DNA of 64,000 nucleotides from NCBI GenBank assembly GCA_000004695.1, contig CM000150.2, forward strand, positions 3,936,001 to 4,000,000. Direction: 5' to 3'. A program made the translations under genes and the position numbers. Shown here piece after piece: positions 2,801 to 38,733 of this stretch. The DNA is from Dictyostelium discoideum (taxonomy: Eukaryota). Numbering within the stretch: position 1 is the first letter of the stretch; each line of letters opens with the position of its first letter. The notes below the pieces were generated by a model. It was given only the letters and a program-made list of their open reading frames with translations. It did no database searches and was not told the DNA's origin.

Positions 2801-2863
<63 letters not shown>

Positions 2864-2865
<2 letters not shown>

Positions 2866-4930
2866 GGAATCAAATGAAATATCAAAAAATCATGTAACAC
2901 CAATGCCATGGAAAAAATTAATTGGTGCATATGTTTTATTATTATGTGAAGCCATTTCAACATCATCATTTTTTACATATATATCACCATTTATAATTTT
3001 CCTGGGAGTTACAGATAAAGCAGAATTGGTGGGATATTATGCAGGATTTATAGCAAGTAGTTTTTCAGCAGCCCAATTTTTATCATCATTTTTTTGGGGT
3101 AAAATGGCAGATAGACTTGGACGTAAACCAATTTTAATATTTGGTAGTGTTGGATCTGTAATATCATTACTTTGTATTGGTACTAGTAAATCATTGGTAA
3201 TGTTAATTTTATCACGTTCAATCAATGGTTTATTAAATGGAAATATTGGTGTAGTAAAAACTTACATTGGTGAGTGCACAGATAAAACCAATCAAGTTGA
3301 AGCATTTGGTTGGGTTGGTTTAACATGGGGTTTAGGTTCAATTTTAGGTCCATCAATTGGTGGTTTATTAGCTGATCCTGTGAAAAATATGTCTTCAATT
3401 TTCAAAGGTTCAAAATTATTTGAATTATTTCCATTCTTTTTACCAAATTTAGTTATTGCATTTTTGACTATCATTGGTTGTGTTTTCACTCAACTTTACA
3501 TGAAAGAAACTTTAGGTATGAAAAAATCAAAAACTATGATTGGATTAACAAGTTTGAAAACTTCACCATCAATGGTTAAATTCTCTGATAAAATTGAAAC
3601 TATTGAACCAATTAATCTTTCAACTGGTGGATTTGAAGAAGATGATGATTATAATAATGATGAAAATCATAATATTAAATCAATTTTAAGAAATGGTTCA
3701 AGTGAAATTAATATTTCAAATTCATCTGAATACTCAATTGAAAATATTGATACAGGTTCAATATTAACAGTTGGTACAGTTGTATTAGATGAGGATGAAA
3801 CTGAACAAATGAAAAAAAATATATTAAATTCAATTCAAAAACAAGAACAAATTACAATTGACTCAACAACACCATCAACAACACCATCAACAACACCATC
3901 ATCACCACCGCCATCATCATCATCAAGTCTTAAACCTTCCTTATCAGTTTTTGAAGATATGGCATTAACTGATAATAATACACATTTCTTAAAAAGATCA
4001 TATTCAAAATTAAAATTAAAATTTTTCAAATCAAAAGATTATAAAATGTTGAATACAAAAAGTAATGATAATACAAATTCTCCAATTGAAGAAGGAGGTG
4101 CAAGAGGAGGTGAGGAAGGGTTGGAAGAATCTAAAAATATATTTAAAGATAAATCAATCATGAAAACTGTATTAATTTATGCGACAGTTGGATTTATTTA
4201 CACAATGCTTGATGAAGTATTTCCATTATGGGCATTCGCACAAGTTTCAAGTGGTGGTTTATCAATGACAAGTGGTACAGTTGGTGTTTGTGGTATTATT
4301 GGTGGTGCAAGTATAATTTTTATTCAATTATTTCTTATAAAACCAGTAACAAGAAAACTTGGTTTAATTCAAACTTTTATTTATGGTTGTTCAATTGCTT
4401 TTTGCTCTTTTCTATCTTATCCACTTTTAAATTTCATACGAGCGCCTCATGAATCAATTTCAAGTGTAACACAAGATATAATATTTTGGGTTTCAGTTAC
4501 AATTGTAATTTCAATTAGAAATATTGGTGCTCAATTAATTTTTACACCAATTATGGCTTTAATTAATAATAGTGCTAAAATTGCTGTTAGAGGTAGTGCA
4601 AATGGGTAAATATTTTTTTTTTTTAATATATATAAATTAATTTTATATTAATTATTTTATTTTTATTTTTTTAGTTTGGGTCAATCATTGGTTGCAGCCA
4701 CTAGAACAGTTGCACCAACTTTAGGTGGAACTATTTTATCATGGAGTTTAACAAATGGACTTCCATTTCCTTTAAATTTTTTCTTTCCTTTTATTTTAAT
4801 GAGTATTTGCACAATAATTCCAATTATTACTTCAAAGTTCTTTTTCCCACTTTCTTTAAATTCTCCAATTAATGAAGATGATAATAATAATGATGATTTA
4901 GAGGAAAATCAAATACCAACATTCGAATAA
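2864..4930 (+). CDS. Major facilitator superfamily (MFS) transporter, about 665 aa. Exons 2864..4605 and 4675..4930.
   Basis: MFS motif A is GKMADRLGRKPILIFG. There are about 12 predicted hydrophobic helices split by a large hydrophilic central loop. The first ORF ends AAT GG|gtaaatat (phase 2). Acceptor ttttttag at 4674 continues in frame (G)LGQSLVAATRTVAPTLGGTILSW..., which is the same protein as track ORF 4676..4930. Confidence 0.7.
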
Positions 4931-4973
4931 TTAATAATAATAATAAAAAAAAAAAAAAAAAAAAAAAAAAAAG

Positions 4974-5012
<39 letters not shown>

Positions 5013-5487
5013 ATTAATCGCAAATTGATAGTTTTTTAAATATTGGATTTTTTTAATATCTTTAAATAATTAAAGTCAATGAAAATTTCCTTTACCAATA
5101 TTATTAATTTATAAAAATAAAATTAAAATTTTTTTTTTTTTTTTTTTTATTCATAAAAATAAAATAAAAATAAAATAAAATCCTTAAAAAGTTATTGTTT
5201 ATTAATAAGTTGTAATAATAAACAATATTTAATAATCATTTTCAAATTATTTTAAAATAATCCTTAATTGACTACTCATTTTTTAAAAAATATCTTCTTT
5301 TACTATATATATATATATATAAAAATATAAAACAAAAACAAACACAAAAAAAAAAATAATTTAATTAAACAAATTATTTTAATTCTCAAAATATTATCCA
5401 GAATTAAATAATAAAAATTATCTCAAATATTTCAAACATCAGGAATTTGGGAAATTGTTTTGAATTATTTTTTTTTTTTCTTTTTTT

Positions 5488-8437: not shown

Positions 8438-8996
8438 ATGGATTTTTTTATATTATATTGGATTTTAGTACTGGTAATTACAGCAGGATTAGTATCAGCA
8501 TCAGTATTTTGTATTGTTGCGTTAACAGATTTAGAAGCAGATTTAGTTAATCCAATCGATCTTGCAAGAAGATTAAATCCATTATTCAGTACCGATGTTT
8601 CTTTTCATTCTGCATTATGTTTATTATTCCTTGTAAATTTCGAAATTACTTTACTTTTATTAAATTCAGTACTTTTTGGTTTTCATATGTATTGGTAACT
8701 ATTTAAATTATATAAACATTATTAATTATTATAAAAATATATATCTATATATGTATATGTGTTTATTAACTTTTTTTATATTATAATCAATAATATTTAA
8801 TAGGTTATTTACAGGTCAAAATAAAATATTTGCAGCTGATATTTTCAAATTATTACCAGTTTATAAGAGAAGATATGCAATCAAAATTGCATTTTATATT
8901 GTCACATTCTTTTTATATTTATATTGGTTTATTTATTATTTAGTAAATACTCATGCCAGTCCAGCTTTAAAAACTATGAAAATACCTGTTTATTAG
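8438..8996 (+). CDS. Cornichon family protein (ER cargo receptor), about 149 aa. Exons 8438..8694 and 8804..8996.
   Basis: Exon 1 MDFFILYWILVLVITAGLVSASVFCIVALTDLEADLVNPIDLARRLNPLF...FHMYW ends TAT TG|gtaact (phase 2). Exon 2 after ...aatag gives (W)LFTGQNKIFAADIFKLLPVYKRRYAIKIAFYIVTFFLYLYWFIYYLVNTHASPALKTMKIPVY*. The conserved cornichon motif D-E-L-x-x-D-x-x-NPID and the C-terminal AFY...FF.YLY pattern are present. Confidence 0.6.
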
Positions 8997-9284
8997 ATAA
9001 ATTAAATAATAATAATAATAGTAATAATAATAAAAATAATAATCTCTCCCCCTCCAATTTGTATAAAATATAATAAATAAATAAATTAACTTATAATTGT
9101 ATAAATTTTTTTTTTTAGATATTTTTTTTTTTTTTTTTTATTATTATCTTTTTTTTTTTATTTTATTTTATTTTTTTTTTTATTACATTACTGGAAAATG
9201 TTTTTTTAAAAATGGATATTACAATTATCCATCTTTTTTTAAAATTTTAGCTAGTGAATTTTAATGATTAAATATACAATCATA

Positions 9285-9315
<31 letters not shown>

Positions 9316-9331
9316 GATTTAAATATGGTAT

Positions 9332-9372
<41 letters not shown>

Positions 9373-9380
9373 TATTATTT

Positions 9381-10280
9381 TTAGCCAAATAAAACTTTTG
9401 AAAAAGAGTTCCAACCCCAATTACCTTCTTGTTTTTGTTCTTGAGCACCAAAAGAAATGATTGAACCCCAACCCCATCTCTTTGAAGAGTTTGAATTGTT
9501 TGGATTGTATGGTTCTGGTAAATAATCAGGAGTTGATTCAACCTCTTCTTGACCATCAATGATTAAAGAAGCAGAGAGACCTACATTGTTACGAATTACC
9601 AATTTAATTTCATCCGAGGAGAGGGAAGTACGAACGGTGGCATGACATTGACTAAGATCGATCATAAATGAGATAACACCTTTGGTCTTTAATAAGCATT
9701 CTTCTAATTGTTTTTTAGTTGATTCATTATTCATACCTTTGACATGTAATAAAAGTGTTTTAATTAATGCTGGATCAATTGATTTACTACTACTAACTTG
9801 AGAGGCGGTATTATTCGATTTCACTGGTGTATCTTTAATTGGTAATTTCTCACCGATTAACATTGAAAATGATGTTGATGCTGATTTCTTTGGTGCTGTA
9901 CTATATGAAGTTGCAGTTGCAGTATTTGTTGTTGTTGTTGTATCAATTTTTGTAGTTTCATTAATTGTACCTTTATCACTTGAACCTTCAATATTTATTA
10001 AAACTTTATCTACAATTGATTTATATTGATCCTTTTGTTGTAACTTTTTTAAGGTTGATACTAAACCTGGTTCTTTAAGCATTGGTTGTTTATTATTTTG
10101 ATTATGTGATAATAATTCTAATGTCTCTAAACAAAGTAATACCATTTCAACATCTTCTTCATTTGACCCTAATAACATTACCAAAACTGCTAAACAACCT
10201 TGATCTTTAACTATATGTTCACGATTATCAACATCTTTTGCCAATTTATGGAGTGATTGTACCATTGAAAGTGCACTCAT
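9381..10280 (-). CDS. Armadillo-repeat protein with C-terminal HMA-like domain (ARMC1-like), 299 aa.
   Basis: Single ORF. N-terminus MSALSMVQSLHKLAKDVDNREHIVKDQGCLAVLVMLLGS... resembles the ARMC1 N-terminus (..NRRAIVQDQGCL..). C-terminal LLLHVKGMNNESTKKQLEECLLKTKGVISFMIDLSQCHATVR has the beta-alpha-beta-beta heavy-metal-associated-like fold signature. Ends WGW-rich. Confidence 0.5.
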   Translation of the reverse strand: MSALSMVQSLHKLAKDVDNREHIVKDQGCLAVLVMLLGSNEEDVEMVLLCLETLELLSHNQNNKQPMLKEPGLVSTLKKLQQKDQYKSIVDKVLINIEGSSDKGTINETTKIDTTTTTNTATATSYSTAPKKSASTSFSMLIGEKLPIKDTPVKSNNTASQVSSSKSIDPALIKTLLLHVKGMNNESTKKQLEECLLKTKGVISFMIDLSQCHATVRTSLSSDEIKLVIRNNVGLSASLIIDGQEEVESTPDYLPEPYNPNNSNSSKRWGWGSIISFGAQEQKQEGNWGWNSFSKVLFG

Positions 10281-13010: not shown

Positions 13011-13405
13011 TATTGAAAAAATCCAATTTGACTTAAAAAAAAAAAATAAAAAATAAAAATAAAAAAATTGAAAATAATAAAAATAAAAATAAAAATAAAA
13101 AATTATTTTTATTTTTTATTACTTATTTATTTTCTAAAGACTATTAAAAAATATAAAATAAAAAAAAATACCAAATAAAAAAATAAAATAAAGACTATTA
13201 AAAAAAAAAAAAAAAAAAAAAAGGTAAATATTAAATGGTAAAAATAAAAATAAAAAAAAAAAAAAAAAAGAAAAAAATAAAAAATTTTATTATAAAATTT
13301 TTAATATCTTTTTTTTTTTTTTTTAATTTTTTTATTTTTTTTTATTTTTTTTCAATTTTTTTAATTTTGAAAAAAAAAAAAAAAATTTTGATTGTTTTTC
13401 TAATT

Positions 13406-13438
<33 letters not shown>

Positions 13439-13508
13439 TATCACACACACAATATTAGGTAGATATTTGTATTTTTTTTTTTTTTTACACACAATTATTT
13501 ACTTTTTC

Positions 13509-13546
<38 letters not shown>

Positions 13547-13671
13547 CATCATCATTATTTTAAAATTAATAACAACCTAATACTAATATTTAAATTTTAA
13601 ATATAAAAATAAATCATCCCTAAATAATATTTTTTTTCTATATAAATAAAAAAAAAAAAGAAATTTAAAAA

Positions 13672-13875
13672 ATGACCAGAGAAGAAAATGTTTATATGGC
13701 TAAATTAGCTGAACAAGCTGAAAGATATGAAGGTAAATAAGATAATATTTTTAATTACTTTTTTTTTTTTTTTTTTTCTCTCTAAATATTAAAAAAGAGA
13801 AAAAAAAAAAAAAAAAAAAAAAAAAAATTAAAGTGAAGTGAACCTCATTACTAATATTTTTTTTTTTTTTTCTCT

Positions 13876-13906
<31 letters not shown>

Positions 13907-14633
13907 ATTATTATTATTTTTTAAAATATTTTTAGAAATGGTCGAAGCAATGAAAAAAGTTGCTGAATTAGATGTTGAATTAACTGTTGAAGAACGTAAT
14001 CTTTTATCAGTTGCTTATAAAAATGTTATTGGTGCTCGTCGTGCCTCATGGAGAATCATCTCATCAATTGAACAAAAAGAAGAATCCAAAGGTAATGAAA
14101 ACCACGTTAAAAAGATCAAAGAATACAAATGTAAAGTCGAAAAGGAACTTACCGACATTTGTAATGATATCCTCGAAGTTTTAGAATCTCACTTAATCGT
14201 TTCATCAGCCTCTGGTGAATCAAAAGTTTTCTACTACAAAATGAAAGGTGATTACTTCCGTTATTTAGCTGAATTCGCCACCGGTAACCCACGTAAAACT
14301 TCCGCTGAATCATCATTAATTGCCTACAAAGCTGCCTCTGATATCGCTGTCACTGAATTACCACCAACCCACCCAATCCGTTTAGGTCTTGCATTAAACT
14401 TTTCAGTTTTCTACTATGAAATCTTAAACTCCCCAGACAGAGCTTGCAACTTAGCCAAGACTGCATTCGATGATGCCATTGCCGAATTAGATACCCTCTC
14501 TGAAGATTCATACAAAGATTCAACTCTCATTATGCAATTATTACGTGATAATCTTACTTTATGGACCTCTGACGTTCATAATATGGAAAAAAATCAAGAT
14601 GGTGACGACGATCAAAATGAACCAGGAATGTAA
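13672..14633 (+). CDS. fttB: 14-3-3 protein, about 252 aa. Exons 13672..13732 and 13936..14633.
   Basis: Exon 1 [20 protein letters not shown] + G|gtaaataag. Intron 13733..13935 ends tatttttag. Exon 2 (E)[49 protein letters not shown]...[21 protein letters not shown]... These are canonical 14-3-3 signature blocks ([20 protein letters not shown]; [21 protein letters not shown]). Confidence 0.85.
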
Positions 14634-15253
14634 ATAAATTAAAAAAATCAAATAATAATTTTTTAAACAAACCAAAAAAAAAAAAAACCAAAAAAAAAAA
14701 AAAACAAATGTAAAGTTAAATTAATATATACACACTAAGAAAAGAAAAAAAAAATAAGAAAAAAAAAAAGAAAAAAACAAAACTTTTTAAAAAAAAAAAT
14801 AAAAAAAAATAAAAAATTTTAAAAAAAAAAAAAAAAACACTTAACCCTTTTAGCTTTATTCTTTTTTTGATTTAAATAATATTAACAATAAATAAAAAAA
14901 AAAATTTTAAAACAAAAAATCAAAAACAATTTTTCTATTTTTGTGGTAACTTTTTTTTTTTATTTTTTTTATTCTATTTTTGGGTTTGATCGCCGAATCT
15001 CCTATTTAAATTCTTTTTTTTTTATTTTTATTTTTCGTTTTTGGTTAAATCTTAAAACAACACAAAATAAACTCACACTAACATCTAGCAAAACTAAAAA
15101 GATTATAAACAGACCTATTTTATCTTGAGTTATATAAAATCTTGCCAACTCCAAGCCAAAATTCCATCCCATTTAAAGAAATTAAAAAGAATAAATGTAT
15201 TAAAGGAAAAGGTCTTGAGGATATCAAAAGCACCAATCTTCATCTACAAATCA

Positions 15254-15309
15254 CAGGTAGAAACAGAAGGCCATTTGTTCACAGGTAGAAACAGAAGGCC
15301 ATTTGTTCA
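15254..15309. repeat. Perfect tandem duplication of a 28-bp unit (ACAGGTAGAAACAGAAGGCCATTTGTTC x2) inside a GC-richer noncoding island.
   Basis: Seen directly at 15254-15281 and 15282-15309. Confidence 0.85.
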
Positions 15310-15902
15310 TACTATACCAACCGACGATCGACTTGCTCATATAAGGCTATTAGACGTTTGACAGCCATGGGAAAAAAACTCTTAATTTTTTAAAAAAAAA
15401 TACTTCAAACTACTCTTTATTTTTATAGACCCATTCACAACAAATTCAAAATGTGGGACTTTGTTAAAAGTGAGAATTTTTATAAGGAAAAAAAAAATTT
15501 TGCTTTTATGCCTATGTTTTAAACAATTAAAACCAGTTTATTCCAAAATAAAATTAAAAATAAATATTTAAGAGTCTTTTTAAATTGTGTGTATTTTGTT
15601 AAAATAAAAAAATAAAAAAAAAATTAATCCAAACCCACAAAATTTTATTTTTCTTTTTTTAAAAAAATGCCATAATTTGTTGTGATAGTTGATAAAATAA
15701 ATTTTAAAAAAAAAAAACCAAATCAAAATTCAAAATTAAAAAATGACTTATACTAAACCCTTCACCAAGAGTAAAAATCCAAAAATATAATTAGGACAAA
15801 CATCTCAAAGAGAAGGAACAAAAAATGCATTATCCAATTCCAGTTTTTTTTAAAAAAAAAAAAAATGCCAAAAATTTTGTGTGTGGATAAAAATAGAATA
15901 TG

Positions 15903-16028
15903 AAAATCATTCAAGTTTGTGCACTTTTTAAAATTTGAAAATTGTCAATATTATTTTTATTCTATTGGATCCCCATATAAAATATTTATAATTACAAAAA
16001 AGTGCGCAAACTTGGATGATTCTTACAA
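15903..16028. repeat. About 125-bp element bounded by 25-bp imperfect terminal inverted repeats (MITE-like).
   Basis: The left arm aatcattcaagtttgtgcacttttt (about 15905-15929) matches the reverse complement of the right arm aaaaagtgcgcaaacttggatgatt (about 15999-16023) at 23 of 25 positions. The 70-bp AT-rich core has no coding potential. Confidence 0.4.
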
Positions 16029-16195
16029 TAATTTAAATAAAATTTCATCCTGAATAAAGAAAAATGAAATAATTACTTATTTAAAAAAAAATAAAATCCT
16101 TTTTCTTTTTATTAAATTTATATTTTATTTTTTTTTTTATTTTTTTTTTGTTTTTTTTTTTTATTTATTTTTATATTAAATTAAGAATTAAAAGA

Positions 16196-17505
16196 TTAAT
16201 GAGCATATGGTTGAGCTCTACGAGAATTTGTATTAATTGATTTAGTACCAGTGTAACTTGTATCTTTTCTTTCAGCGGTTTGAATAACATTTGATCTTTT
16301 CTTGGTGGCTTTTTCGAATCTATTACGTTGACGAAGATGTGGAGTTCTATTTTCTCTACTACGTTGTCTAGTGAGACCTCTATTCTTTTCAATGCTCTTA
16401 CTGACTTTTCTTTTATCACCTTCTTTATGAGAGAAATCTTTAGAGGTATCAAAATTATTTGTACGTGGAATACCATCGTATTGTGGTTCTTGAGATTTGT
16501 TGTTGTTGTTGAAACTATCAATATCGTCATCTGATTCACCACCACTTTCAACTTCATCATCTCTGGAACGATTGAAATCTCTTTTATTTTGTTTTTCTGG
16601 TAATGGTATATCTTCATCTGCTGAACGAGCACGTTTATTTCTACCCAATTCATTATTTAAAATTGATGCCATTCTCTTCTTTCTCAAGTAGTCTTGATTC
16701 TCTTTTGCTTCTTTATCATCTTCATTCTCCATGAGTGAAGTGAGATCACTAAAATCTGCCAAGTCATTAAGACCATCTGATAATTTCTTTTGTTTAGATT
16801 TCATTGCTTTTTGTTCTTTCTTTGATAACATAACACGAGTGTAATTTGATTCTTCATAGTTTTTAAGTGCTCTTTCATCATCCTCTTCATCATCACCATG
16901 ATATCTGCTACTGCTACCACCACCGCTACCATCTAAATAATCATCTTCTTCCTCTGGTTTATCACCATAGATTTCTTCAATTTCTTTAGCCATTTTACCT
17001 TTAATTGATTTTTGTTTATCACGAATTTCTTTAGATTTCTTTTTAGCGATGGCATCTTCTTGATCAATGACACCACCTTTGGCACCATATAATTTTGGTG
17101 CTTGATAAACACCTGCTCTTTGAGCAATTCTACTATTTTCATCATCATAATCATTATCTAAACCTTGTTCATCATCTTCATCTTCATCATCATCACCACC
17201 CATTGATGATAAATTTGGTCTATGTTGTAATGGATCATCTTTTGATGAACCTACTAATGTACCAGTATTTGCACTCTTTAGCAATTTATCAATTTGATAT
17301 TTTAATTTCTTATCTAATGGTTGAATCTTTTCAATCATTGTTCTACATTTTATTAATTGATCAATAACTGGATGATCTTTAATTGAAACACCTGATGATT
17401 TTAACATTAAAAAATATGTAATATTTAAACAATAACTTAATAATAATTCTAAAATAAATAAAAAAATAAAAAAAAAAATTAGTTTTTAGTTTTTTAGTTT
17501 TTTTA

Positions 17506-17568
<63 letters not shown>

Positions 17569-18580
17569 AAATAAATTTATTATTATACATACGATATTTT
17601 GTTTCTAAAAAACTAATACCCTTTGAAGTTGGTAATTGATTTGATTTTACTTTTTCAAGTGCTGGTAAAATTGATGTTTTAACTTCATTCATTTTAACTT
17701 TAAAATCTTCTAATAAATCTAAAAGTAATGGTGATTCTGTAATGAGATATTGTAATTTCTCTTTCTTTGTAAAATTTGAAATATCTTTTTCTAATTTTTC
17801 AATTTGAGAACTATTATTATTAAATAAAAATAAAAAATATAAAATAAAAAAAATAAAAAATTAGTTAGTGTTTGAGATTTGAAAATTGAAATTTTGAATA
17901 TATTGAATATTTTTGAAAATTTACTTTTTATCACCAAAATTAATTGAATTTAAATCAGAATTTAAAGATTGTAACATTTTTTCTTCAGGTTTTAAAATTG
18001 ATTTATCTTTATTTTTCTTATTTAATAAATTTTTAAAAGATTGATCATCATCTTGGAAATCGTCATTTTTAATTAACTTATTTCTATGTTCTTGTAATTG
18101 TTGAGCTTCTAATTCTTCTTCATCTTCATCTTCTGATCCGATATCTTTTGAATCGGTTTTCTTTGAATAAAAAAGTTTTTTATCTTTACCCCATGCTGTT
18201 TTATTCTCTAAATCTAAATCTTTGGCTTTTGTTTTCTTTTCAACAATTTCGTCATCTGATTCTGATCCAATACCATCTTCATAATCATCTTCTTCTTCAC
18301 TTTCAAAATCTTCAGCTTCCTCTTCTGAGAAATCTAATCCGATATCAACCTTTTCTGCTATTTTGCTTTTATTATTATGTTTTCCTTTAATAGTTGATAA
18401 ATCAACTTTGTTCTTTTTTTGAATAACTAAATAATAATAAATAATGTTAATTTATATTTAAAAGGTATATTAAAGATAAAAATACTTACAACTATCTACA
18501 TCAGATTTACCATATAGTTTATCAACTGATAGTGGTTTTTTATTTATTGGTAATGAACCTTTTTTATTGTTTTTTGACAT
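16196..18580 (-). CDS. Sas10/Utp3 (SSU processome component), about 687 aa. Exons 18580..18490, 18426..17925, 17810..17593, 17448..16196.
   Basis: Splice phases are consistent: E1 ...DVDS T|gtaagt; E2 ...GDK AA|gtaaat; E3 ...ETKY R(C)|gtatgt; E4 starts after tatttattttag. The junction-spanning sequence QLLLSYCLNITYFLMLKSSGVSIKDHPVIDQLIKCRTMIEKIQPLDKKLKYQIDKLLK is the Sas10/C1D-family domain (compare recalled human UTP3 LLLSYCLNLSFYLLLRAEGASVKDHPVI...KKLQYQIEKLL). The C-terminus RNRTPHLRQRNRFEKATKKR matches the Sas10 C-terminal domain. There are long acidic (D/E) stretches. Intron 3 (17592..17449) carries (AAAT)n. Confidence 0.65.
17506..17578. repeat. (AAAT)n / (TATT)n tetranucleotide microsatellite inside Sas10 intron 3.
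   Basis: Seen directly. Track ORF 17486..17692 (FIYLFIYL...) is an artefact of reading through this intron. Confidence 0.9.
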
Positions 18581-19133
18581 TTTATTATTTACTCCAAAAA
18601 AACTATTACTAACTTTTTAGGTAAAACAATTGTGAGATTAAAAAAAAAAAAAAAAAATAAAAAAAAAAAAAAGACGAATTTTTTGATTCGTTTTTGTTGG
18701 AAAAAAAAAAAAATTAAAATAAAAATAAAATTAAAAAATAAAAATAAAAATTTTTGCCAAAAAAACGATAATTTATTATTCATTTTTTTTTTATATTTTT
18801 TTTTTTATTTCTTTTTTTTTTAAATTTTTTTTTTTTTTTTATTTTTATTTTTTATTTTATTTTTATTTTTTTTTTATGGTATCCTATTTTGGATAAATTA
18901 GGAAAGTGATTTTAAATTGATTGATATTTCATTTCTTAATTTGTTTTTTTATAAAAATGAGCTAACAAAAAAAAAAAGGTTTTTTTTTTTTTAATTTTTT
19001 TTTAATTTTTTTTTTTTTGAAAATTTTGTGGTTTTTTTTTTTTTTTTTTTTTTTCATATTTATTTTAATTATTTTTATTTGTATTAATTAATTAATTAAT
19101 TAATTTGATATCTTATCCTCTTTTTTGTTTTTC

Positions 19134-19178
<45 letters not shown>

Positions 19179-19287
19179 TGTAATTTCGATATATACAATA
19201 TCAAAAAATAAAATAAAATAACAACTAAATAAAAATAAAATAAAATAAAATAATAATAATAATAATAATAAAATATAAATAAAAAAA

Positions 19288-20544
19288 ATGACAGAAACAA
19301 TAAATTTAAATTTAGATTTGAATGAAGATTTAGATAAAAATGAAAAGATTAATCAAATGCTTCAAAATATATTTCAAAACTTGCAAGAGTTAAAAACAAA
19401 AATGATTGTAAATAAAAGTAAAAATAAAGAGTTATTTCAAGTTGGAACAGAGATTATAAAACAATCTACAACTTCAAATAATAATACACCAATAATAACG
19501 AGCGAAAAACAAGTTGGTCATACACTACCAACTATTGTATCATTAGAAAGCAATAATAATAATAATAATAATAATAGTAATAATAATAGTAATAACAATA
19601 ATAATCAAAATAATGTAAATATAGAAAAAATGGAAAATCAAATTAAAGAACAACAAAATGAAATTACAGAATTAAAAGAAAAATTAAAACAATTTAATTT
19701 AGAAAAGGATAATAAGATTGAAATAAATCAATTATCTACACAAATAGATCAATTACAAAAAGGTATATACACACTCTCAATATATATAGATAAAGTGTTG
19801 AGAAAAATCAAAAAATATATTTATTAATTTATTTATATTTAAAATAAATTAGTTATAATTATTTTAGAAAAGAAAAATAGGACGGCAGAGTCATCTTATT
19901 CAGATATAAAATCATCTTTAGAAACATTAATTGAAAAAGGAAGACTACAAATGGTAATATTATTCATAATTACTTTATCATTACTTTATAATAATTAATT
20001 AATTTATTAAATTTCTTTTTTTCTTTTTTTTTTTTTTTCACAGAAATCACTTTTATATGAAAAATCAAAATCAGAACAATATAGTAAACAATTTGACCAA
20101 GAAAGAGATATAAATACTCAATTAAGAAAAGAGAATTTACATTTAAAATCAAAATTACAAGAAATGTTATTTTTATTACAAAAAGCATCTGAAGAGGATG
20201 AAGAATATTATTTATCCTATTCAAATGAATTATATAAAGAAAACCAATTATTAAGAGAATTATTAGGAATTTCCAAAGAAATGAAAAATATAAAAACTAT
20301 AAATAAAAATGATAACCACAATAATAATAATAATAATAATAGTAATAATAGTGAAAATAAAAGTAATAATTGTAGCAATAGTGTTATTTATAAAGGTAGT
20401 AGTTCCAATAATAATAGTAATAATAATAATGAAAATGGAAATGGAGTTGAAAATAGTGAAAATATTATAGACGAAGAAACAAATAATGGTAATTTAGATA
20501 AAGAAGAGGATTCAATAGTATATAGTAACTTAAATTTAAACTAA
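19288..20544 (+). CDS. Coiled-coil protein, N/Q-rich, unknown function. Provisional exons 19288..19762, 19868..19953, 20044..20544.
   Basis: Track ORFs 19288..19827 and 20164..20544 can be joined. Donor CAA AAA G|gtatatac (phase 1), acceptor attttag at 19867 giving (E)KKNRTAESSYSDIKSSLETLIEKGRLQM|gtaatatt, then acceptor ttttttttcacag at 20043 giving KSLLYEKSKSEQYSKQFDQERDINTQLRKENLHLKSKLQEMLFLLQKASEEDEEYY... with heptad-like periodicity. No recognisable domain. Confidence 0.35.
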
Positions 20545-20779
20545 TAAATGAATAATAAAAAAAAAAAAAACAAAAAAAAAAAAATCAAGAAATAAAAAAA
20601 ACTTTATTTATAAAATAATTTTAAATTTTAATCATTCTTTATTTTTTCTGTGTTTCGTTAATATTTTCTTTGATTTTTTTTGATATTTTTTTTTTGATTC
20701 AGTGAAAAAAAAAACAATTAAATAAATTTATTTTTTTTTTATTTTTTATTAATAGCTTGAAAATTTGGAATTGCCAACT

Positions 20780-20827
<48 letters not shown>

Positions 20828-20915
20828 CATAAATAATTAATCATAAATAAATAAATAAAATTTAATATATATATATATATATATATATAAATATATACAT
20901 ACATATATATATAAA

Positions 20916-21791
20916 ATGACAGATAAAATTAATGGAGAGATTGAAATACCATATAGTTTATTTAAATCAATAGAATTAGGATCAGAGAAAAATATTCCAT
21001 TGAAATATTTAATATCACATGCAAATTATAGTTGTATTTGTAAAGATAGTTTTGTATCAGTTGAATGTGAATATCAAATTAGAGTATTTGATCATATTGA
21101 AAGAAATAAAAATTTATCATCAGTTGTTAAAGGTGGAAACGAAGGACATAAAGAATCAATTCAATTAGTTTCACAAAAAGCAACCATTTTAAATAGTACA
21201 ATTAAATATTTAAAAAATAGTCATGGTGGTAGTGGTGGTGATAATAGTGATGCAATAATTTTAACATCAGGTACACATTATTATTTACATACTGGTACAG
21301 CTGGTAGATATAGTGTAAAATTGGAATTGTCAGTACCCTATTTAACAGTGAAAGAAGCTGGTATGGATTTATCAATTCCACAATGTTCAAATAATTCAGT
21401 GTTCTTCCGAGTGCCACATGTTGATGCAAATATTAAAATTTTCAATTCATTCCTTGATACACAATCTTTATTGAATTGGTCAGAAAGAAATGGTAAAGAG
21501 TCAAATAATTATACAGTTACATTTGTAAAACTTGCAAATGAATTATCACTTAAAGCACAATGGACAATTAATGAAGATTTCATTTCAAATAAAATATCTT
21601 TAAAAAATACTGATGAAAATAATAATAACAACAACAATCAAATTGCACAACCAAAAGTTGTAGTTAAACCAAATGTTATAGTTTCACAAAATATACTTTG
21701 TTCAATTGGTGAAGGTTTATTATTATTAAAATATAAAATTGATTATAAAGTAAGTTTTAATTGTGAATTTAAAATTAAAATTAAAATGTTA

Positions 21792-26022: not shown

Positions 26023-27455
<1,433 letters not shown>

Positions 27456-27576: not shown

Positions 27577-30500
27577 CTATTGTTTTAATAAATTTAATAC
27601 CATTTGTTCAGTAATATTCCAACCATCATAAGAACCAAAAGAAATTAAAAGTGATTTTGTATTTTTTGAAATTTTAAATTCTTTAGACATGTGATATTTT
27701 GTGGGAGTAAAATCTAAAGGATGAAAAGTTCTTAATCTGATACAAGTTTTATCATTTGATTCTGAAATCATTTTTTTCCAATTTATTAAAGTGGTTTCTT
27801 TGTAATTAAAATTTTTTTTTATCATTAGAAATATTTCATTTGTTGTTTGCAATTCACCATTTAATGAAATAATATTTAAAGTATTTATTTTTGTTTTTGA
27901 CCAACAACCTTCATTAAAGATTAAATTAATAATATTTTGTGCTACCCATGTTACTGGACTAATAAATAATGAAGTTGGTTCAATTGGGAAATATTTAGTA
28001 ACACTAATGGATTTAATTATTAATTGAAGCAAATCTCCACTATGACCAATACCAGTATGTGGATTTGAAAATATTGATGGTAATCTAATTGTCATTGCTG
28101 GAATACCTCTTGATGATGCTTCTAATAGTAAATGTTCACAGATAAGTTTACTTTGAATATAGCCACCTGGTAAATTATTTAAATTACTTAATGAAGGTAT
28201 TCCAACTTGGTATTCATCAAATTCGATTTCATCATTTAATTTTTGACCAAAGAAAATTGAAAATGAAGATAAATTTACAATTGGTATCATTGGTTTATTT
28301 GTACCTTTCGAAACTGATAGCTTTATAAACTCTTTAGTTGAGTCTACATTGGTTGGTTTAATTTCATCATAATTTGCATTTAAATTAATATCAGCACCAC
28401 AACTTAAAATTAAATTTACTTGATTTGAAATTTCTAAATACATTTTATCAGATAATCCAAGTTTACTCTTTCTTAAATCTCCACGGACTGGGAAAATCTT
28501 TTCCAATTCTGATTGTTCAAACATTTCAAATAATTTATGGTGTTTTAAATTGTCAATTATTTTATTCATTAAATCGATTTGGTCAGATAAATGACCTGAT
28601 CTTGTTAAACAATAAATTTTTGAACAGTTTTTCATTTTTACTAAATTCAATAAAAGATAACCTCCTAAAAATCCAGTTGAACCACTTAATAATATAACTT
28701 TATCCATTTTATTATCAATAATTAAATCTGATTTAATTGATGATGCAATTATTGTTTCATCTAATTTTGCTTCATTCTTCCAATATTCAAATGTTTTTGT
28801 TGTTGTTGTTATTTCATTGGTATTATTAACCACTGTACTACTTTTATTTTTACCTTCTTTCTTTTTATCTAATGAATTTGTTATAATTTTAATTGATGAT
28901 GAAATTGTATTTGTTTGAAGTTGTTGAATTGTAATAATATTACCTGATAATTCTTTATCTACCCAATTTTTTAATTGAACGATTGATAAAGAATCAGCAC
29001 CATATGCAGAAAGTTTAATATCGATATTAATCTTTGATATTTCAATTGATAATACCTCTGAAACTTTCTCTAAAAACATTTGATTTACAGAGTTTTTATT
29101 ATCCTGATTACCATCATGACCCAATTGATTAACTTTATTCTTTTCTTCTAAAGAAACTTGATAATCAATCTTTGAAAAATTATTTTTTTGTGGATTATAT
29201 TTTGTTATATTTGAGAAATTAAAACTTGAAACTATTAAATTTGTTGATAGTTCTTGATTTTGGATTTGTAAATCTAATGAACCTAAAATTGTATTGATTG
29301 AAAGTGGATTGAATCCTAAATTTTCAAACATTACTGAAACATTTTCATTTCTTGATACAAATCCAGTTGATTTTATTAAACCATAACTTGTGCAAATTGA
29401 TGGTAAGCCAAGTGATTTTCTATACTGTGAGAATGATTCTAAAACATTATTTGCACAAACATAACTACATTGGCTTTCAGAACCTAATGATGAGGTAACT
29501 GATGATGCAATTATAAAGTTTTTTAATTTCCATCCCCTTTTAATTGATTGATCGTGTAAAATGATTGCACCAATTGTTTTTGCGCCAAATGAAATATCCA
29601 GAGTATCCATATTGATAGCTTCTACATTCTTTGTTATTTGATGGAATGCATAGTGGAATATTGAATCAATGTTATCAATATCATTTGAAACTTCATCGAT
29701 TGCTTTTCCCATCGAGTTTATATCACCAACATCAACGCTCTTGAAATGAAATTTTATATGTTTATTTCTATTTACTAATAGTTCTAACTGCCATTTCATT
29801 GATGATTTTGAAAGGATAATTATATTTTCAACTAATGGCGCAAATTTAACTATCCATTTTATAATTTCAAAAACTATACCAGATTGACCAGTAACTATTA
29901 TATTCTTTCCTAAATTATTTATATTGATTTGATAATTTGATTTTAATAATGTAAAATCTAAATTGGAAGTTGAATTGATTTTCTCCTTTATTAAATTACC
30001 CACTAAATCTGTATCATGATTAACAACAATTTTACCAATATGTTTACGTTGATTAATATATTCAAATGCATTTTTAATATTAACATTTGAATATTGAGTT
30101 ATTGGTAAATTATTAATTAATTCATTATTTTCAATTGCTTTTGATATTGATTTTAATAATTTCTTTAAAATTGGTGCAGCTATAAAAAGTAATTCTACAT
30201 TATGATAACCATAGTTGAATTTAAATTTCTTATTATCAATATACTCATTTGAATTCAAATGAGTGATTGATAAATCTACAATTCTACCACTTTTTGAAAG
30301 ACAATTGAAATTTGAATCCATATAATCACTTGATAATGTATTTAATATTAAATCTACACCTGTTTTATCCGAGCCTAATTCTTTAAGTTTATCTTTTATT
30401 TTTTGAACATAACTCTTATCTCTTGTTGAATAAATACCTGTAATTAAAGATCCATAGGTGTCACGTAGATATTTCTCTTTCTCTGGTGATCCAACTGTAA

Positions 30501-33500
30501 GGAAAATATAAGAACAATGACCTTTCCATTTTAAAATATTTAATGAAGATAAACCAACACCACCGGATGCTGAATGAATTAAAATTGATTCATAATTTTT
30601 TAAATTACCAATATTGTAAATACTATGAAGAGATGTTGAATAAACTACTGGTATTGTTGATGCTTGTTCATGACTTAAGTTATTTGGTTTAAAATAAATT
30701 GAACCTGAATCTATAATAGATTTGGATGATGCAGTGTTATATGCAGTACCATAAACTTGGTCACCAACTTTAAATTCACTACAATTGTTTTTGGATACTC
30801 TTGTAATGACACCAGAAAAGTCACTACCAAATTCTGGGTCATTAATATCACCCGTTTTATGATTGACCATTTCAGGTGGCACACTTCCAATGTATGTAAG
30901 ATAATCTTTATAATTTAATGCAAATGATTTAATTTCAACTTGGACTTCAAATGGTTCTAAATCTTTTGTCATTGGTTTTAATTCATATTCTAAATTTGGT
31001 GATAAAACTGCTACTAAATCATTTTCAACTAAATCTTGATATGATTCAGATTTGAATTTTTTTCTAAGATTTTGTTCTTTCTTTATTCTTTCAAAATAAA
31101 CTTTACCATTTCTAATTAAATATTCTTTTTGAATAGATATTTTCTTATCTGTTAATAATTCAATCAATGATACTAAATTCTTTTCATTATTATTATGAGT
31201 GTATTCAATAATTGATTCTTTATCGAAATCTAATGTGAATAGTTGTAGTTGTTGAAATTCATCGAAATATCTTGCAGCACCTATAACTGATGATGCTAAA
31301 TAATTATCTTTTCTTGAATCTGATGTTATCAATACATGTTTGCACATTGAATTAAGTTTTAATAGTTTTCTATTAATTTCTATGTATTCAAATGTAATTG
31401 ATTTAAAATTATCCAATGTTAATTGTTCCATTGTTTTTATAAAATAAATCACAGATTTATCGGTTATTGATTGTTTTTCTACAAATTCATTAAATTTACT
31501 GATTGTTGATATTATACTTAATATCTTGTCATCAGTTGATTCTAGTGATTTTAAAAATTTATTACAAATTTCACTGTCATCATTACTATAAATTATAATT
31601 TGATCATAAGAGTCTATATTTGGATTTGGTGATAATTCTGATAGTAATTGTGGTTTTCTTGTTTGAATGATTGATTTTTTATCATTTGAAATGATTGTAT
31701 CTTTAAAATTACATTGATCTAATAACTCTTTTATTTCAATTAAGTTATTTCCATCATTATTTATTAATATTAATTGACCATTTGGTACCATTAAATTATA
31801 AATCATATAAAGTGTAGCCTTAATATCATTTGTTTCCTTTTCTAAATCATTTATTAATACAATATCATATTGTGAAGGTTTTAATTGATTATCTTCGAGT
31901 AACAAAGGATCATTAATGCTATAATCTCTATAAAGTATGCTAACACGTTCATTGATGTGTGATAGTTTATCCTTGATTGATGAGGTTAATGATTGTGGGA
32001 CACTACCAAAAGTATATTCAATATCAATTTCACACAATGGAAACTCTTTTAATAATTGATTAAATTTCTCTAAAACATTATTTGATGAATGAAATGTGGT
32101 TCCATTGTAATCTGCAAAACCGCTTGAAAAATCTAATATTCTAAATACCATTTTTTCATTTACAAATGGTACAAGTGATTGCTTAATAATTGTACCTACT
32201 AAAATATCATTTTGTCCTTTTTCTTGTTGGTAAAGTGATTCGAATGTTTGTGGTGGTAAAATTAATGAATCCTTTGATTGAAGGTAGGTGGAATATAATT
32301 CATTTGTTGGTGCTTCAATTTTTAATGAATCTTGAATTGGTGTTAATGAAGTACATGCTGCATTATCGATTTCAATTAATACAGTACCATCTTCTAACAT
32401 TACTACAATAGATGCAAAGTAAGAATCACCCATTTTTGCATTTAATGATGAATAAACATATACGTTTGTATGTTGATCCCTTGCTGATGGTATATTTGAT
32501 GAATATAGATTAAAACCTTCAATTCTATCGAAAACCAATTGACAATGTTCATCAACTAAACCAATCATACCATGTAAACAACAATCTAAAATTGAAGAGT
32601 TGAAAAATGACTTTTGATCTGGTAAATGTTTTGGAAGTTCTAATGAAACCACTGATAATGAACAATTATCACCTAAATAACACATCGATACAGCTTGAAA
32701 CATTCCACTATATGTTAAACCAGTTTTTAACTTTATGTGGTCATATAAATCTTCTTTTGTCAATTTGGTTAAATTGCAACGTTTTTCAATCAAATCTTTA
32801 ATATTGTATTTTTGATTGAATATTTTTAAAGACTTTTCACCATTGTGTTTAAATAATTGAAAATTACCAAACGATGATTGAATCCATTCATTCTTTTTTT
32901 GATCTTTAAAATGGAATAATACTTTATATTCTGTTTTTCCAGTTGGATAAATGTTTGTTTGTAAACAATGATTTACTGAATCATCTGTAAAAATAAATGG
33001 AGTACTAAATTCCAATGTACTAATAGTTATATCTTGTGATGGATAAATTTTTAATAAATTATCAATATAACCACAACCTGGGAAATAGAATTTCCCTTTT
33101 ACAACATGACCTTTTAGATATTGGAATGGTTTTCTCTTTATGTTTATAAATGTTTGATAAGATTTTACAAATGGTGAATCAGTAATTGAATTACCTAATA
33201 TATCAATTGGTGGACCTGTTAAATAATAATTCTCATAGAGTGAATTAATTTTCCAAAATTGTTTTTCATCCCATTGGTATAGTGGTAATTTATGAGTTGG
33301 TACTATTGATCTATTTATATTTTCAAATTGACATTTAAAGTTTATATTATACCCATTCTGACAATATAATTGAGAAATGGTTTGTCTTATCTCTTTAACA
33401 TCATTCTTTTTCTTGTGAAGTGGTGAATAAATTGAAATACTATCACCTTTTCCAAAGTAACTTGAATCTTTTGGTATCATTTGTTTTAAATAAAATTGTA

Positions 33501-35374
33501 AAGTTGGATGAGGAGCCAATTCAATAAAAACAATATCAGTTCCCAGTTGATTATTTTCTATATGTTTGTATAGATTTTCAATTGTTTGAGTAAAGTTCAC
33601 TGATTTTAAAATATTTTCATAAGTATATTTTGGTGAATATGGAGTAGTTTTATAATCAAATAAATTTGTTGTTACTGTAGAAAATATTGGTATTTCCGAT
33701 TCTTTGGATTTATAGTCCAATGAAAGGATATATTCTTTAATTGCTTTTTGACTTGATGTATGGAAAGATGATAATGAACCTAACATTGATGTAAATTCAC
33801 CTTTACTTTTTAATTCTTCTGAAATTTTATTTAGTTGATCCTCTTTTCCTCCAATTACAATTGATGTTGGTGAATTATAACATGAAATTTCTACATCAGG
33901 ATATCTTGATGAAAATTGTTCAATAAACTTTTCAGGTGAAATATTAATTGATAACATTCTACCACAACCTGTTGTTGTACTCTGGGCTATTGATCTATGA
34001 TAAATTAAATAACATTCAGTTTCTAAATCAATCATACCTGAACAATAAGCGGCAGTAACTTCACCAAGACTATGACCAACTATAAATGTTGGTTTAATAC
34101 CCCAGTGTTTATATAATTCGAATAGTGAAATTTGTACCATACAAATTGCAGGTTGTGCTAATGCTGGATTATGAATTGATTTCATATCATCTACCGGAAT
34201 GGATCTTAATTTCTCTAATATCGAGAAACCATAATATTTTGATAATTTATTATCCAACATATCCATAGTTTTTCTAAATATTGGTTCATTTTTATATAAT
34301 TCCAATGCCATTGTATTATATTGTGAACCTTGACCACAAAATACCATAATAATAATTGGATTCTTTGATTTTATTGAAATGTTTGATGATGTTGTTTTGA
34401 TTGTTTTAATATTATTATTAGTTGATATTAAATTATCTTTAAAATCATTCCAATTTGAACCTAAAATAACTGAACGTTGGTATAATGAATTTGATTTACT
34501 CATTATTTGTTCCTTTACAAAATCATTAAACTCCATAGTTTCTTGATTAAAATTTGAAATTAAAGATTGATATTGTTCTAATGATTTAGTTGAATTTGCT
34601 GAAAATGGAATTAAATATTCAATATTGTTCTGATGTTGTTGTTGTTTTAAATTTATTGTATTATTATTATCACTGCTACTATTATGATTATAATTGAAAT
34701 CTTTTAAAATAATACAAACGTTTGAACCTGTAACTCCAAAATTATTAACAGCCATGGTAATTTCTTTTTTTGGGAATGGAGTTGGTTCTACCACTACTTT
34801 TAAATTCCATTCATTAAATTTTATTAATGGATTTGGTGTTTTAAAATGTAAATTTGGTATAAAGTATCTATTTTTAAACATTAAACAGCATTTAACCAAT
34901 GATGCAATACCAGAAGATGCTTCACAATGACCAATCATTGATTTAAACGAACCTATTAATAATGGATTTTCTTTTGAATGATTGTCTTTGAAAATACTTG
35001 AAATACCTTCTACTTCAATTGGATCACCAACTGGAGTACCTGTACCATGTGCTTCAACATAGTCTACATCTTTTGCATTGATATTACCAGATGATAATGC
35101 CATTTTAATATTTTCAGCTTGTGATTGTGCTGATGGTGAATAGAAATTTGATTTATCACTATATCCATTACCATCAACATTTGAACTTGTACCTTTAATA
35201 ACACAATAAACTCTATCACCATCAATAATTGCTTGGTTTAAATCTTTTAATAATAATACCCCAATACATTCACTTTTTACATAACCATCTGCATTTGCAT
35301 CAAAACTTTTACATCTTCCGTCTTTACTTAACATATTCATATATGAAAATGATTTTGGGGTATTTGCATCTATT

Positions 35375-35407
<33 letters not shown>

Positions 35408-36087
35408 TTTATTTTAATTAATATATGTTCCATTATTTTTTTTTTTTTTTTTTTCTACTTACCAAAAATTAAACTTGTACCACCAACAATTGACATTTTA
35501 GAGTTTCCTTCAATGATAGATTTACAACCTAAAACCACAGCATTTGATGATGACGAACAAGCTGTATCTATTGTTATTGATGGACCATGAAAATCAAAAA
35601 TGTTTGAGACACGATTTGATGATGAATGTGATGATGATGAAAATATGTTGGTTTGAATTGAATCGATAGTTCTATTTAAATCTCTATATTCGTGAGTTGT
35701 ATTCCCAATGAAAACAGAGGTATTTGAACCGCGTAAATTAATTGGATCAATCATTGCATCTTCAATGGCTTCCCATGTACATTTTAAAAGTAAACGTTGT
35801 TGTGGATCTATTGCAGTTGCCTCTGGTGGACTTATACCAAAGAATAAAGGATCGAATGATTTAACTTCATCCATTGGTAATAAACCACCATATCTATTAT
35901 TAATCTCGCCCAATTTGTTGAAATTATCACTCCATCTTTCATTAGTTTCAATAATACCATCATAACCATTAACTAATTCTTTCCAAAGTTCACTTGGATT
36001 ACCTAAACTCTTGCCACTACCACCACCTGGTAATCTAAACCCAATTCCAATAATCCCAATACCATTATTTTCTTCTTTTAAAATCAT
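27577..36087 (-). CDS. Type I iterative-type reducing polyketide synthase, about 2805 aa, domain order KS-AT-DH-(degenerate C-MeT-like)-ER-KR-ACP-R (terminal NAD(P)-dependent reductase). Exons 36087..35463 and 35369..27577.
   Basis: E1 [23 protein letters not shown]... has the KS active-site Cys in IDTACSSS and ends TTT G|gtaagtag (phase 1). The 93-nt intron ends aaacaatag. E2 (D)[23 protein letters not shown]... continues the KS ([36 protein letters not shown]). AT: GQGSQY...GHSLGE (plus strand about 34028-34078). DH: [16 protein letters not shown] (about 33061-33108). Degenerate MeT motif I: [16 protein letters not shown] (about 32105-32150). ER: [19 protein letters not shown] (about 30550-30590). 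KR: [14 protein letters not shown] (about 29870-29910) plus YVCANN. ACP: [17 protein letters not shown] (about 28990-29010). R domain: [14 protein letters not shown]...[12 protein letters not shown] (about 28700-27577). Confidence 0.85.
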
Positions 36088-36230
36088 AATTTATTTTTTA
36101 AATTAATAACTATAAATGATTTATTGGATAATATATGTTAATAATTATATAATTAATTAATTTTTTTTTTTTTTTTTTTTTCATTTTATATGAAAAAATA
36201 AAAATAAAAAATTAAAAATATTTTATATCA

Positions 36231-36335
36231 CCAGACAGACAGATAGGTAGGTAGGTAGGTAGGTAGGTAGGTAGGTAGGTAGGCAGACAGGTAGGTAGGT
36301 AGGTAGGCAGACAGGTAGGTAGGTAGGCAGACACA
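36231..36335. repeat. GC-rich (TAGG)n/(GTAG)n tetranucleotide array punctuated by CAGACAG, about 150-250 bp upstream of the PKS start codon.
   Basis: Seen directly: ccagacagacagataggtaggtagg...ggcagacaggtaggtagg...ggcagaca. Highly unusual composition for this genome. Confidence 0.9.
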
Positions 36336-36432
36336 TTCATTAAAATCTATTTAAATAAAACAATCTAAGATGTTTATAATATTAAACTGTAAAAAAAAAA
36401 AAGTTTGGAAAAAAAAAAAAATAAAAAATAAA

Positions 36433-36560
36433 AGAGAACAGATTATGGTGTTTAGGAGCATTCTTCGAAGGATAAAAAAAAAATAATAATAATAGAGAAC
36501 AGATTATTTAATAAACATTTTTTCTAATAAAAAAAAAAAAAATAAAAAGAGAACAGATAA
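36433..36560. promoter_or_regulatory. Three direct copies of AGAGAACAGAT(T/A)A at 36433, 36494 and 36548, spaced 61 and 54 bp apart, in the PKS 5' flank. Candidate cis-regulatory repeats.
   Basis: Seen directly. Each copy is preceded by an A-run (aaaagagaacagattatgg, aatagagaacagattattt, aaaagagaacagataaaat). Function is inferred only from position upstream of the minus-strand pks and downstream of the TBC gene 3' end. Confidence 0.3.
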
Positions 36561-36693: not shown

Positions 36694-36851
36694 TATATAT
36701 TTTATTGTTCTTTTTCTTTATTCTCTCTTTAATTGTTTCTACTTTATTTTTTTTTTTTATTTTTTTTTTTTTTTTAATTTTTTTTTTTTTTTTTGTTTTT
36801 TTTTTTTTTTTTTTCTTGGTAGGGAAATAAAAAAAAAAATTATTAAAAATA

Positions 36852-38733
<1,882 letters not shown>

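Follow-up and report, generated by a model that had tools for sequence, protein, structure and literature searches.

The 5' flank of the PKS gene considered here is probably best viewed as an ordinary promoter, albeit one that is fast changing and that carries both a young microsatellite, grown by slippage, and a lineage-specific cluster of short motifs. An earlier note on this DNA had taken these two elements together as a dedicated regulatory module for the PKS. A young, lineage-specific microsatellite can, that is, pose as a control element, particularly by being a striking composition outlier within an AT-rich genome.

The stretch of DNA analyzed, here termed the window, is 64 kb in length and has a very AT-rich base composition of the Dictyostelium type. 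The PKS gene is found on its minus strand, as two exons and one intron, with Pfam domains ordered KS, AT, DH, ER, KR, ACP, and then a C-terminal NAD_binding_4 reductase (i.e., KS-AT-DH-ER-KR-ACP-R), a domain set by which the gene can be described as a reducing type I PKS. Upstream of the PKS gene is a RabGAP-TBC gene, with 764 bp found between the stop codon of the latter and the start codon of the former. Bounded in this manner, the spacer must house the RabGAP 3' end as well as the PKS promoter, and it is within this spacer that the array and the motif copies are located. The coordinates and anatomy of these features, as read directly from the window and in order along the PKS sense strand, are as follows, with loci L001 to L010 being those which are identified further below:

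36852-36854, minus strand: stop codon of the RabGAP-TBC gene, the upstream neighbour of the PKS gene.
36548..36560, minus strand: motif copy 1, sense TTATCTGTTCTCT, reading AGATAA (a GATA core) on the plus strand; presumed ancestral copy.
36494..36506, minus strand: motif copy 2, sense TAATCTGTTCTCT, then a T-run; lost by deletion in L003 and not present in L005.
36446..36473, minus strand: island of higher GC content that separates motif copies 2 and 3, sense ATCCTTCGAAGAATGCTCCTAAACACCA; found in diverged form in L001, L003 and L005.
36433..36445, minus strand: motif copy 3, sense TAATCTGTTCTCT, then a T-run; apparently derived relative to L005.
36334..36390, minus strand: proximal promoter block, sense ACAGTTTAATATTATAAACATCTTAGATTGTTTTATTTAAATAGATTTTAATGAATG, kept in all D. 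discoideum-complex isolates as judged from alignments.
36233..36333, minus strand: compound tetranucleotide microsatellite (the array), 101 nt, 25 units in one register, each of the form T-R-Y-C on the PKS sense strand.
36219..36227, minus strand: TATA-like box TATAAAATA, recognized by its sequence, 5 nt downstream (PKS sense) of the array.
36193-36218, minus strand: T-rich run of 26 nt, directly after the TATA-like box.
35463..36087, minus strand: PKS exon 1, encoding the N-terminal part of the KS domain, with the start codon at 36087.
35370-35462, minus strand: PKS intron of 93 nt, GTAAGT...ATAG.
Running to 27577, minus strand: PKS exon 2, the spliced product being 2805 aa.

A TATA-like box followed by a T-rich run is reportedly the usual Dictyostelium core-promoter layout, as Kimmel and Firtel are said to have described in 1983, and PKS transcription may, on this layout, start near 36190.

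On the plus strand the array reads (TAGG)n/CAGACAGG and on the PKS sense strand it reads TGTC TGCC (TACC)3 TGTC TGCC (TACC)4 TGTC TGCC (TACC)9 TATC TGTC TGTC. It consists, that is, of three blocks, each headed by TGTC TGCC, in a TGTCTGCC(TACC)n arrangement. Tandem Repeats Finder describes it both as (TAGG)21 at 36244-36327 (period 4, 21 copies, 90% matches) and as a 24-nt higher-order unit at 36236-36327, and all 13 of the window's matches to TAGGTAGGTAGG with at most one mismatch fall within it, as compared with 0.04 expected over the window. The array occupies -146 to -246 relative to the PKS start codon, in agreement with the roughly 150 bp upstream of the ATG that had been noted earlier. 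Also borne out is the earlier description of the array as a striking composition outlier, its GC fraction being 0.52 against about 12% GC for the rest of the spacer, and the GC-richest 100 bp of the entire window, coding sequence included, being the array itself (0.53, starting at 36229). Among the window's 85 perfect simple repeats of at least 5 copies, it is one of only 4 with a unit GC of at least 0.4. The window itself is the basis of what is said here about repeat composition.

GC-rich, non-coding hexanucleotide arrays were seen also just downstream of PKS genes at two other loci, as (GTTGGT)10 in L003 (18822-18881) and as (ATCACC)5 in L008 (18721-18750), and GC-rich intergenic microsatellites therefore are rare but not unique.

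Close relatives of the PKS are found only in recently deposited Dictyostelium assemblies. These probably are part of a collection described in PMC12745789, in which possible cryptic species are found along with tropical D. discoideum isolates and the lab strain AX2-214. Six orthologous promoters were compared with that of the window:

L004: GCA_054883475.1, D. discoideum, PKS protein differing by 1 residue.
L001: GCA_054859355.1, D. discoideum, PKS protein identity about 96%.
L003: GCA_054859385.1, D. discoideum, PKS in the 90%-identity cluster of L001.
L005: GCA_054859205.1, D. cf. discoideum, PKS in the 90%-identity cluster of L001.
L002: GCA_054859235.1, D. cf. discoideum, PKS protein identity 88%.
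L010: GCA_054859325.1, D. citrinum, PKS ortholog at 13276-21524 (aligned with window 27577-36172), protein identity 84-86%.

The first five of these loci are all syntenic, carrying RabGAP-TBC, PKS, RNase P p30 and choline-transporter-like genes, with L004 matching the window at 99.6% identity over 28.6 kb (8 mismatches). In D. citrinum the PKS and its promoter are inverted relative to the window, sharing a strand with the choline-transporter-like and RNase P p30 genes, and the promoter there adjoins an (AAT) array about 235 bp long.

The array as well as the motif copies are identical in L004 to those of the window and, as L004 is an independent assembly, neither is an assembly artefact. The other five of the six orthologous promoters (L001, L003, L005, L002, and D. 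citrinum L010) lack the array. In both L001 and L003 the 101 nt are cleanly missing, with ...AAATAGATTTAAATGAATG running directly into GGTGATTTAAAATA..., i.e., with clean flanks in which AATGAATG is followed by GGTGAT, and with the proximal block joined to the TATA-like box, as it is generally in isolates lacking the array. No CCTA or TGTC run of at least 3 units is found upstream of the PKS in L005, L002 or D. citrinum, and no TACC seed exists at the array site in any of the isolates without the array, in all of which the PKS open reading frame is annotated as intact. As three outgroups, each more distant than the last, all lack the array, it is most parsimoniously seen as having been gained in the window's own lineage. 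The array, as judged from these alignments, is a young, lineage-specific microsatellite rather than a conserved control element: Its unit falls within the 1-6 nt range of microsatellites, the units are repeated head to tail in a single register, and it varies among isolates, though as presence versus absence, with both carriers (the window and L004) having arrays of the same length. Comparison of orthologous promoters had been put forward by the earlier note as a check, and what that check reveals for the array is not a conserved module. A scan of metagenomes using the conserved block adjoining the array returned 0 matches.

Structurally, the array is a 101-nt insertion between the proximal promoter block and the TATA-like box, one occurring in the lineage of the window only. 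Its growth was probably by replication slippage of the TACC unit along with duplication of a higher-order unit of 20-24 nt, a combination that fits with the single register kept throughout, with the pure (TACC)9, and with the three TGTC TGCC-headed blocks. Alternatively, a mobile element might have left the array as its footprint or tail, or the array might have been copied in from some other locus as a templated insertion. The array does appear in one step, related isolates having no seed of it, and the same spacer holds a transposon-like insertion in L005. At the array, however, there is no target-site duplication, no terminal (inverted) repeat, and no internal non-repeat sequence, and it therefore does not look like a mobile element; nor, as a possible source for a templated insertion, are there any other (TACC)n or (TGTC)n runs of at least 3 units within the 313 kb examined. 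Such an origin consequently can be described as very improbable. The history of slippage and duplication, along with that of the motif as provided below, is by comparison quite likely.

An insertion of this sort would increase by about 100 bp the distance of all upstream elements from the core promoter, which is not to say that it possesses a function. Known Dictyostelium regulatory elements, such as G-boxes and CA-rich elements, are GC-richer islands in AT-rich promoters, with the GBF G-box/CA-rich element consisting of G/T-only (or C/A-only) half-sites of about 7 nt. Like these elements, the array is a GC-richer island in a spacer that is about 88% AT, with the core promoter within 150 bp on its downstream side. 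Unlike the GBF G-box, it has no G/T-only run of at least 6 on either strand, and therefore does not resemble a GBF-type G-box, and it is not conserved in orthologous promoters.

The array might act instead via DNA structure, i.e., as a G-quadruplex or i-motif, or by positioning a nucleosome at the TATA box, and thereby represent a strain-specific expression variant. This is unlikely, even though the array is 52% GC in surroundings that are 12% GC, lies 5 nt from the TATA-like box, and contains 19 GG dinucleotides at 4-nt spacing, giving 16 overlapping GG-N-GG-N-GG-N-GG arrangements, with quadruplex-aware folding (using RNA parameters) lowering its energy from -10.3 to -15.6 kcal/mol. A canonical G-quadruplex calls for four runs of at least 3 G separated by loops of 1-7 nt, and the array has no GGG run, so that only weak, two-tetrad GG-N2-GG arrangements are possible. 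Folding as DNA yields 0 kcal/mol for both strands, which is worse than for shuffled sequences, and hairpin or cruciform potential is not seen. The earlier idea that the GTAG/TAGG repeat could form non-B DNA has, as a result, little left to recommend it. The array likely is functionally passive, a passenger that, if it acts at all, would do so as 101 bp of GC-rich spacer, on which a nucleosome might be favoured, rather than as a factor-binding array.

Turning to the motif, AGAGAACAGAT is found as three exact copies on the plus strand, at 36433-36443, 36494-36504 and 36548-36558, and nowhere else in the 64 kb. The earlier claim of three direct copies at spacings of 61 and 54 thus is exact. When up to one mismatch is allowed, the window holds 4 matches as compared with 0.72 expected. 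The repeat extends to a 13-mer, AGAGAACAGAT(T/A)A (its other written form being TWATCTGTTCTCT), which on the PKS sense strand reads T(A/T)ATCTGTTCTCT and is followed each time by a T-run. In terms of distance from the PKS start codon, the copies are at -346/-356, -407/-417 and -461/-471. Only copy 1 contains a GATA core, AGATAA, with copies 2 and 3 having AGATTA, which is not WGATAR.

The motif, as well as (TACC)n, was scanned for within about 150 kb of non-redundant Dictyostelium DNA. Near pks genes, which the earlier note had proposed as a place to look, no match with at most one mismatch was found upstream of four other PKS genes (two in L007 and one each in L008 and L009), which is a small sample from a Dictyostelium PKS gene family of several dozen members. 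A literature search for the motif string recovered no Dictyostelium element and only cloning primers along with unrelated cDNA sequences, the primer matches being explained by a SUMO tag that ends ...AGAGAACAGATTGGTGGT. Three copies of AAAGAACAGAT, which differs from the motif by one mismatch, are found in L001 on the minus strand (3313, 4568 and 5963), about 1.3 kb apart; the L001 stretch holding AAAGAACAGAT copies, at about 2685-5258, has no counterpart in the window and may be a tandemly repeated insertion.

Among the isolates the motif is found as follows:

Window and L004: all three copies exact, 61 and 54 nt apart.
L001: again all three copies exact, here 76 and 73 nt apart.
L003: copy 3 retained, with a mutation in copy 1 (ATCAGTTCTCT) and a deletion of copy 2.
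L005: a single, degenerate copy, ATCTGCTCTTT, at -363, its left flank being that of copy 1.
L002: no copy.
D. citrinum L010: one degenerate copy, ATTTGTTCTTT, at -490, a distance similar to that of copy 1 (-471).

The motif copies therefore are a real, non-chance repeat that is common to several D. discoideum isolates, and to that extent the earlier observation holds, but the spacing is not kept (61/54 in the window versus 76/73 in GCA_054859355.1). Alignment of the three units of the window reveals heads that are identical and tails that are unrelated, and copies 2 and 3 of L001 share 25 of 26 nt. The L005 scaffold has the same order as that of the window, i.e., tail 1, an ATCCTTC...AAACA island, CAAAC, and then the proximal block, with plain T-runs at the sites of copies 2 and 3. 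The GC-richer island at 36446..36473, by this alignment, is part of the original scaffold. A decayed tandem triplication of 55-76 nt was considered as an origin of the motif and was rejected, as L005 already possesses all three tails in their proper order but neither head 2 nor head 3.

As to the order of events, a gain of copies 2 and 3 would take two events, as would their exact loss from L005, and the sole reason for favouring gain is that the units have identical heads but unrelated tails. The best reading of the motif cluster, as sequence comparison would have it, is that of a short ancestral element, single at first, which became multiplied in a lineage-specific manner. That element would be copy 1, with its GATA core, from which the 13-mer would have been copied twice, in D. 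discoideum proper, onto the 5' edges of neighbouring T-runs, probably by template switching between T-runs during replication.

Whether such copies would do anything is a separate consideration from how they may have arisen. Between the window and L001, 0 of 39 motif positions differ, as compared with 8% of aligned promoter positions. The chance of 39 unchanged positions is 0.919^39, or about 0.04, making for borderline constraint on the motif between these two isolates. In L003, by contrast, the motif changes at a roughly neutral rate with one copy lost, a pattern which, given both the mutation of copy 1 and the deletion of copy 2, fits with neutral change. The copies might indeed be just a neutral by-product of local duplication, lacking in binding function, with the segment a decaying, low-complexity spacer. 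Copy number does change freely among isolates, no described Dictyostelium element matches, and the surrounding spacer has undergone many other structural changes, with an insertion of about 1.1 kb and a palindromic duplication in L005, another such duplication in L002, and indels in large number. Less readily accommodated are the 39 unchanged positions, against that 8% background, and the fact that the region of copy 1 is recognizable out to D. citrinum. Neutrality of the copies is an appreciable prospect, though less likely than not. A true binding-site role for the 13-mer is itself only tentatively suggested, its likelihood being somewhat less than even; if it has such a role, then the three identical sites may bind one putative activator, perhaps a GATA-type factor.

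GtaC provides a point of comparison, as it is associated with a GATA-like motif by ChIP-seq and with a preference for GATC in vitro (PMC4506546). As with homotypic GATA clusters of the GtaC type, three direct motif copies are found within 130 bp, with copy 1 containing AGATAA. Differing from GtaC sites, neither that GATA-like motif nor GATC (PMC4506546) matches the full 13-mer, and copies 2 and 3 have AGATTA.

It is against this background that the array and the three motifs may be considered jointly as a selected regulatory module, dedicated to the PKS, i.e., one providing developmental or cell-type control. Both elements are less than 500 bp upstream of the PKS start codon, in what is in fact the PKS 5' flank, the array is the strongest composition outlier of the window, the window and L001 have kept the motif in identical form, and GC-richer islands are, as indicated, what known Dictyostelium regulatory elements look like. 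Nonetheless, such a module is improbable. Five of six orthologous promoters manage without the array, ahead of a PKS open reading frame that is annotated as intact, and motif number as well as spacing vary among isolates, copies by lineage being 3, 3, 2, 1 degenerate, 0, and 1 degenerate. The motif, moreover, is missing from the four other PKS promoters and from the Dictyostelium literature searched, and the array offers no G/T-only run of at least 6 and no fit of the GBF type. What stands of the earlier reading is the location in the PKS 5' flank along with the reality of the motif repeat.

The fast-changing but otherwise ordinary promoter that is preferred here has parallels elsewhere. Variable tandem repeats are reportedly found in yeast promoters, as Vinces and colleagues are said to have described in 2009. 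As with those repeats, the array consists of short, head-to-tail units near a TATA box, differs among isolates of one species, and alters the spacing of upstream elements to the core promoter. Unlike with the yeast repeats, the array is known here from presence versus absence, and its unit is GC-rich (TACC) in a genome in which AT-rich units dominate. A second parallel is with ordinary Dictyostelium non-coding microsatellites, the array similarly being a slippage-type repeat that lies between genes in a genome rich in repeats, though it departs from these in its unit GC of at least 0.4, with four such repeats in the window, and in making up the window's GC-richest 100 bp.

More ambitiously, the lab-strain lineage may be supposed to have gained two cis-regulatory changes, i.e., a tripled 13-mer activator site and a 101-bp, GC-rich microsatellite, which together would alter the timing or strength of PKS expression relative to that in tropical isolates. 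This is speculative and rather unlikely. If true, it would represent repeat-driven regulatory change in a gene family, that of the PKSs, which is thought to mediate ecological interactions. Should either the array or the tripled motif alter expression, then the isolates would supply a natural allelic series (0 or 1 array; 1, 2 or 3 motif copies) for the study of repeats and of the regulation of secondary metabolites. More practically, the PKS promoter of the lab-strain lineage has 101 extra bp by its TATA-like box, and results from reporter or expression experiments in lab strains may therefore not transfer to wild isolates.

The PKS itself has a peculiar standing in sequence collections. The exact, spliced 2805-aa protein is absent from the protein collection, as is any AX4 counterpart of this intact product, with the best AX4 proteins being only 45-56% identical. 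The neighbouring choline-transporter-like protein, by contrast, is identical to AX4 DDB_G0269978. It may be that the PKS gene is unannotated in the reference or is there treated as a pseudogene, or else that the window derives from a strain other than AX4. An exact look-up of the exon-1 open reading frame in assemblies of sequencing runs found it not to be on record. A tRNA scan and an Rfam search over the entire window returned 0 tRNA genes and 0 Rfam families at gathering score.

Other observations concern the spacer, which overall is structurally unstable, and its neighbourhood. At 36700-36760, roughly 100-150 nt past the RabGAP stop codon (AATAAAGTAGAAACAATTAAAGAGAGAATAAAG...GAACAATAAAATATATA), is a stretch that is invariant in 6 of 6 D. 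discoideum-complex sequences amid heavy indel change; it probably is the 3' end, i.e., the polyadenylation region, of the RabGAP-TBC gene, and with that the upstream limit of the PKS promoter. The proximal block has been copied in inverted orientation in both of the cf. discoideum isolates, in L005 as a perfect 30+30 palindrome (9788-9848) and in L002 as arms of 52 nt (9681-9732 and 9816-9867) that are 92% complementary. For D. citrinum, an inverted proximal block was suspected and was rejected, the local alignment score of 30 not exceeding shuffled controls (mean 29.8, maximum 41). The L005 insertion, of about 1.1 kb (at approximately 8460-9600, between RabGAP and PKS), has terminal inverted repeats of about 35 nt along with a 130-aa, C2H2-like open reading frame, and probably is a small DNA transposon. 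At this same insertion point L003 has an insert of about 60 nt which resembles the terminal repeat of the L005 insertion. Lastly, two perfect trinucleotide arrays are found in the window, an (ATG)33 inside of the RabGAP-TBC open reading frame (37571-37670) and a (TTA)46 just upstream of the region of the PKS 3' neighbour (26771-26910).
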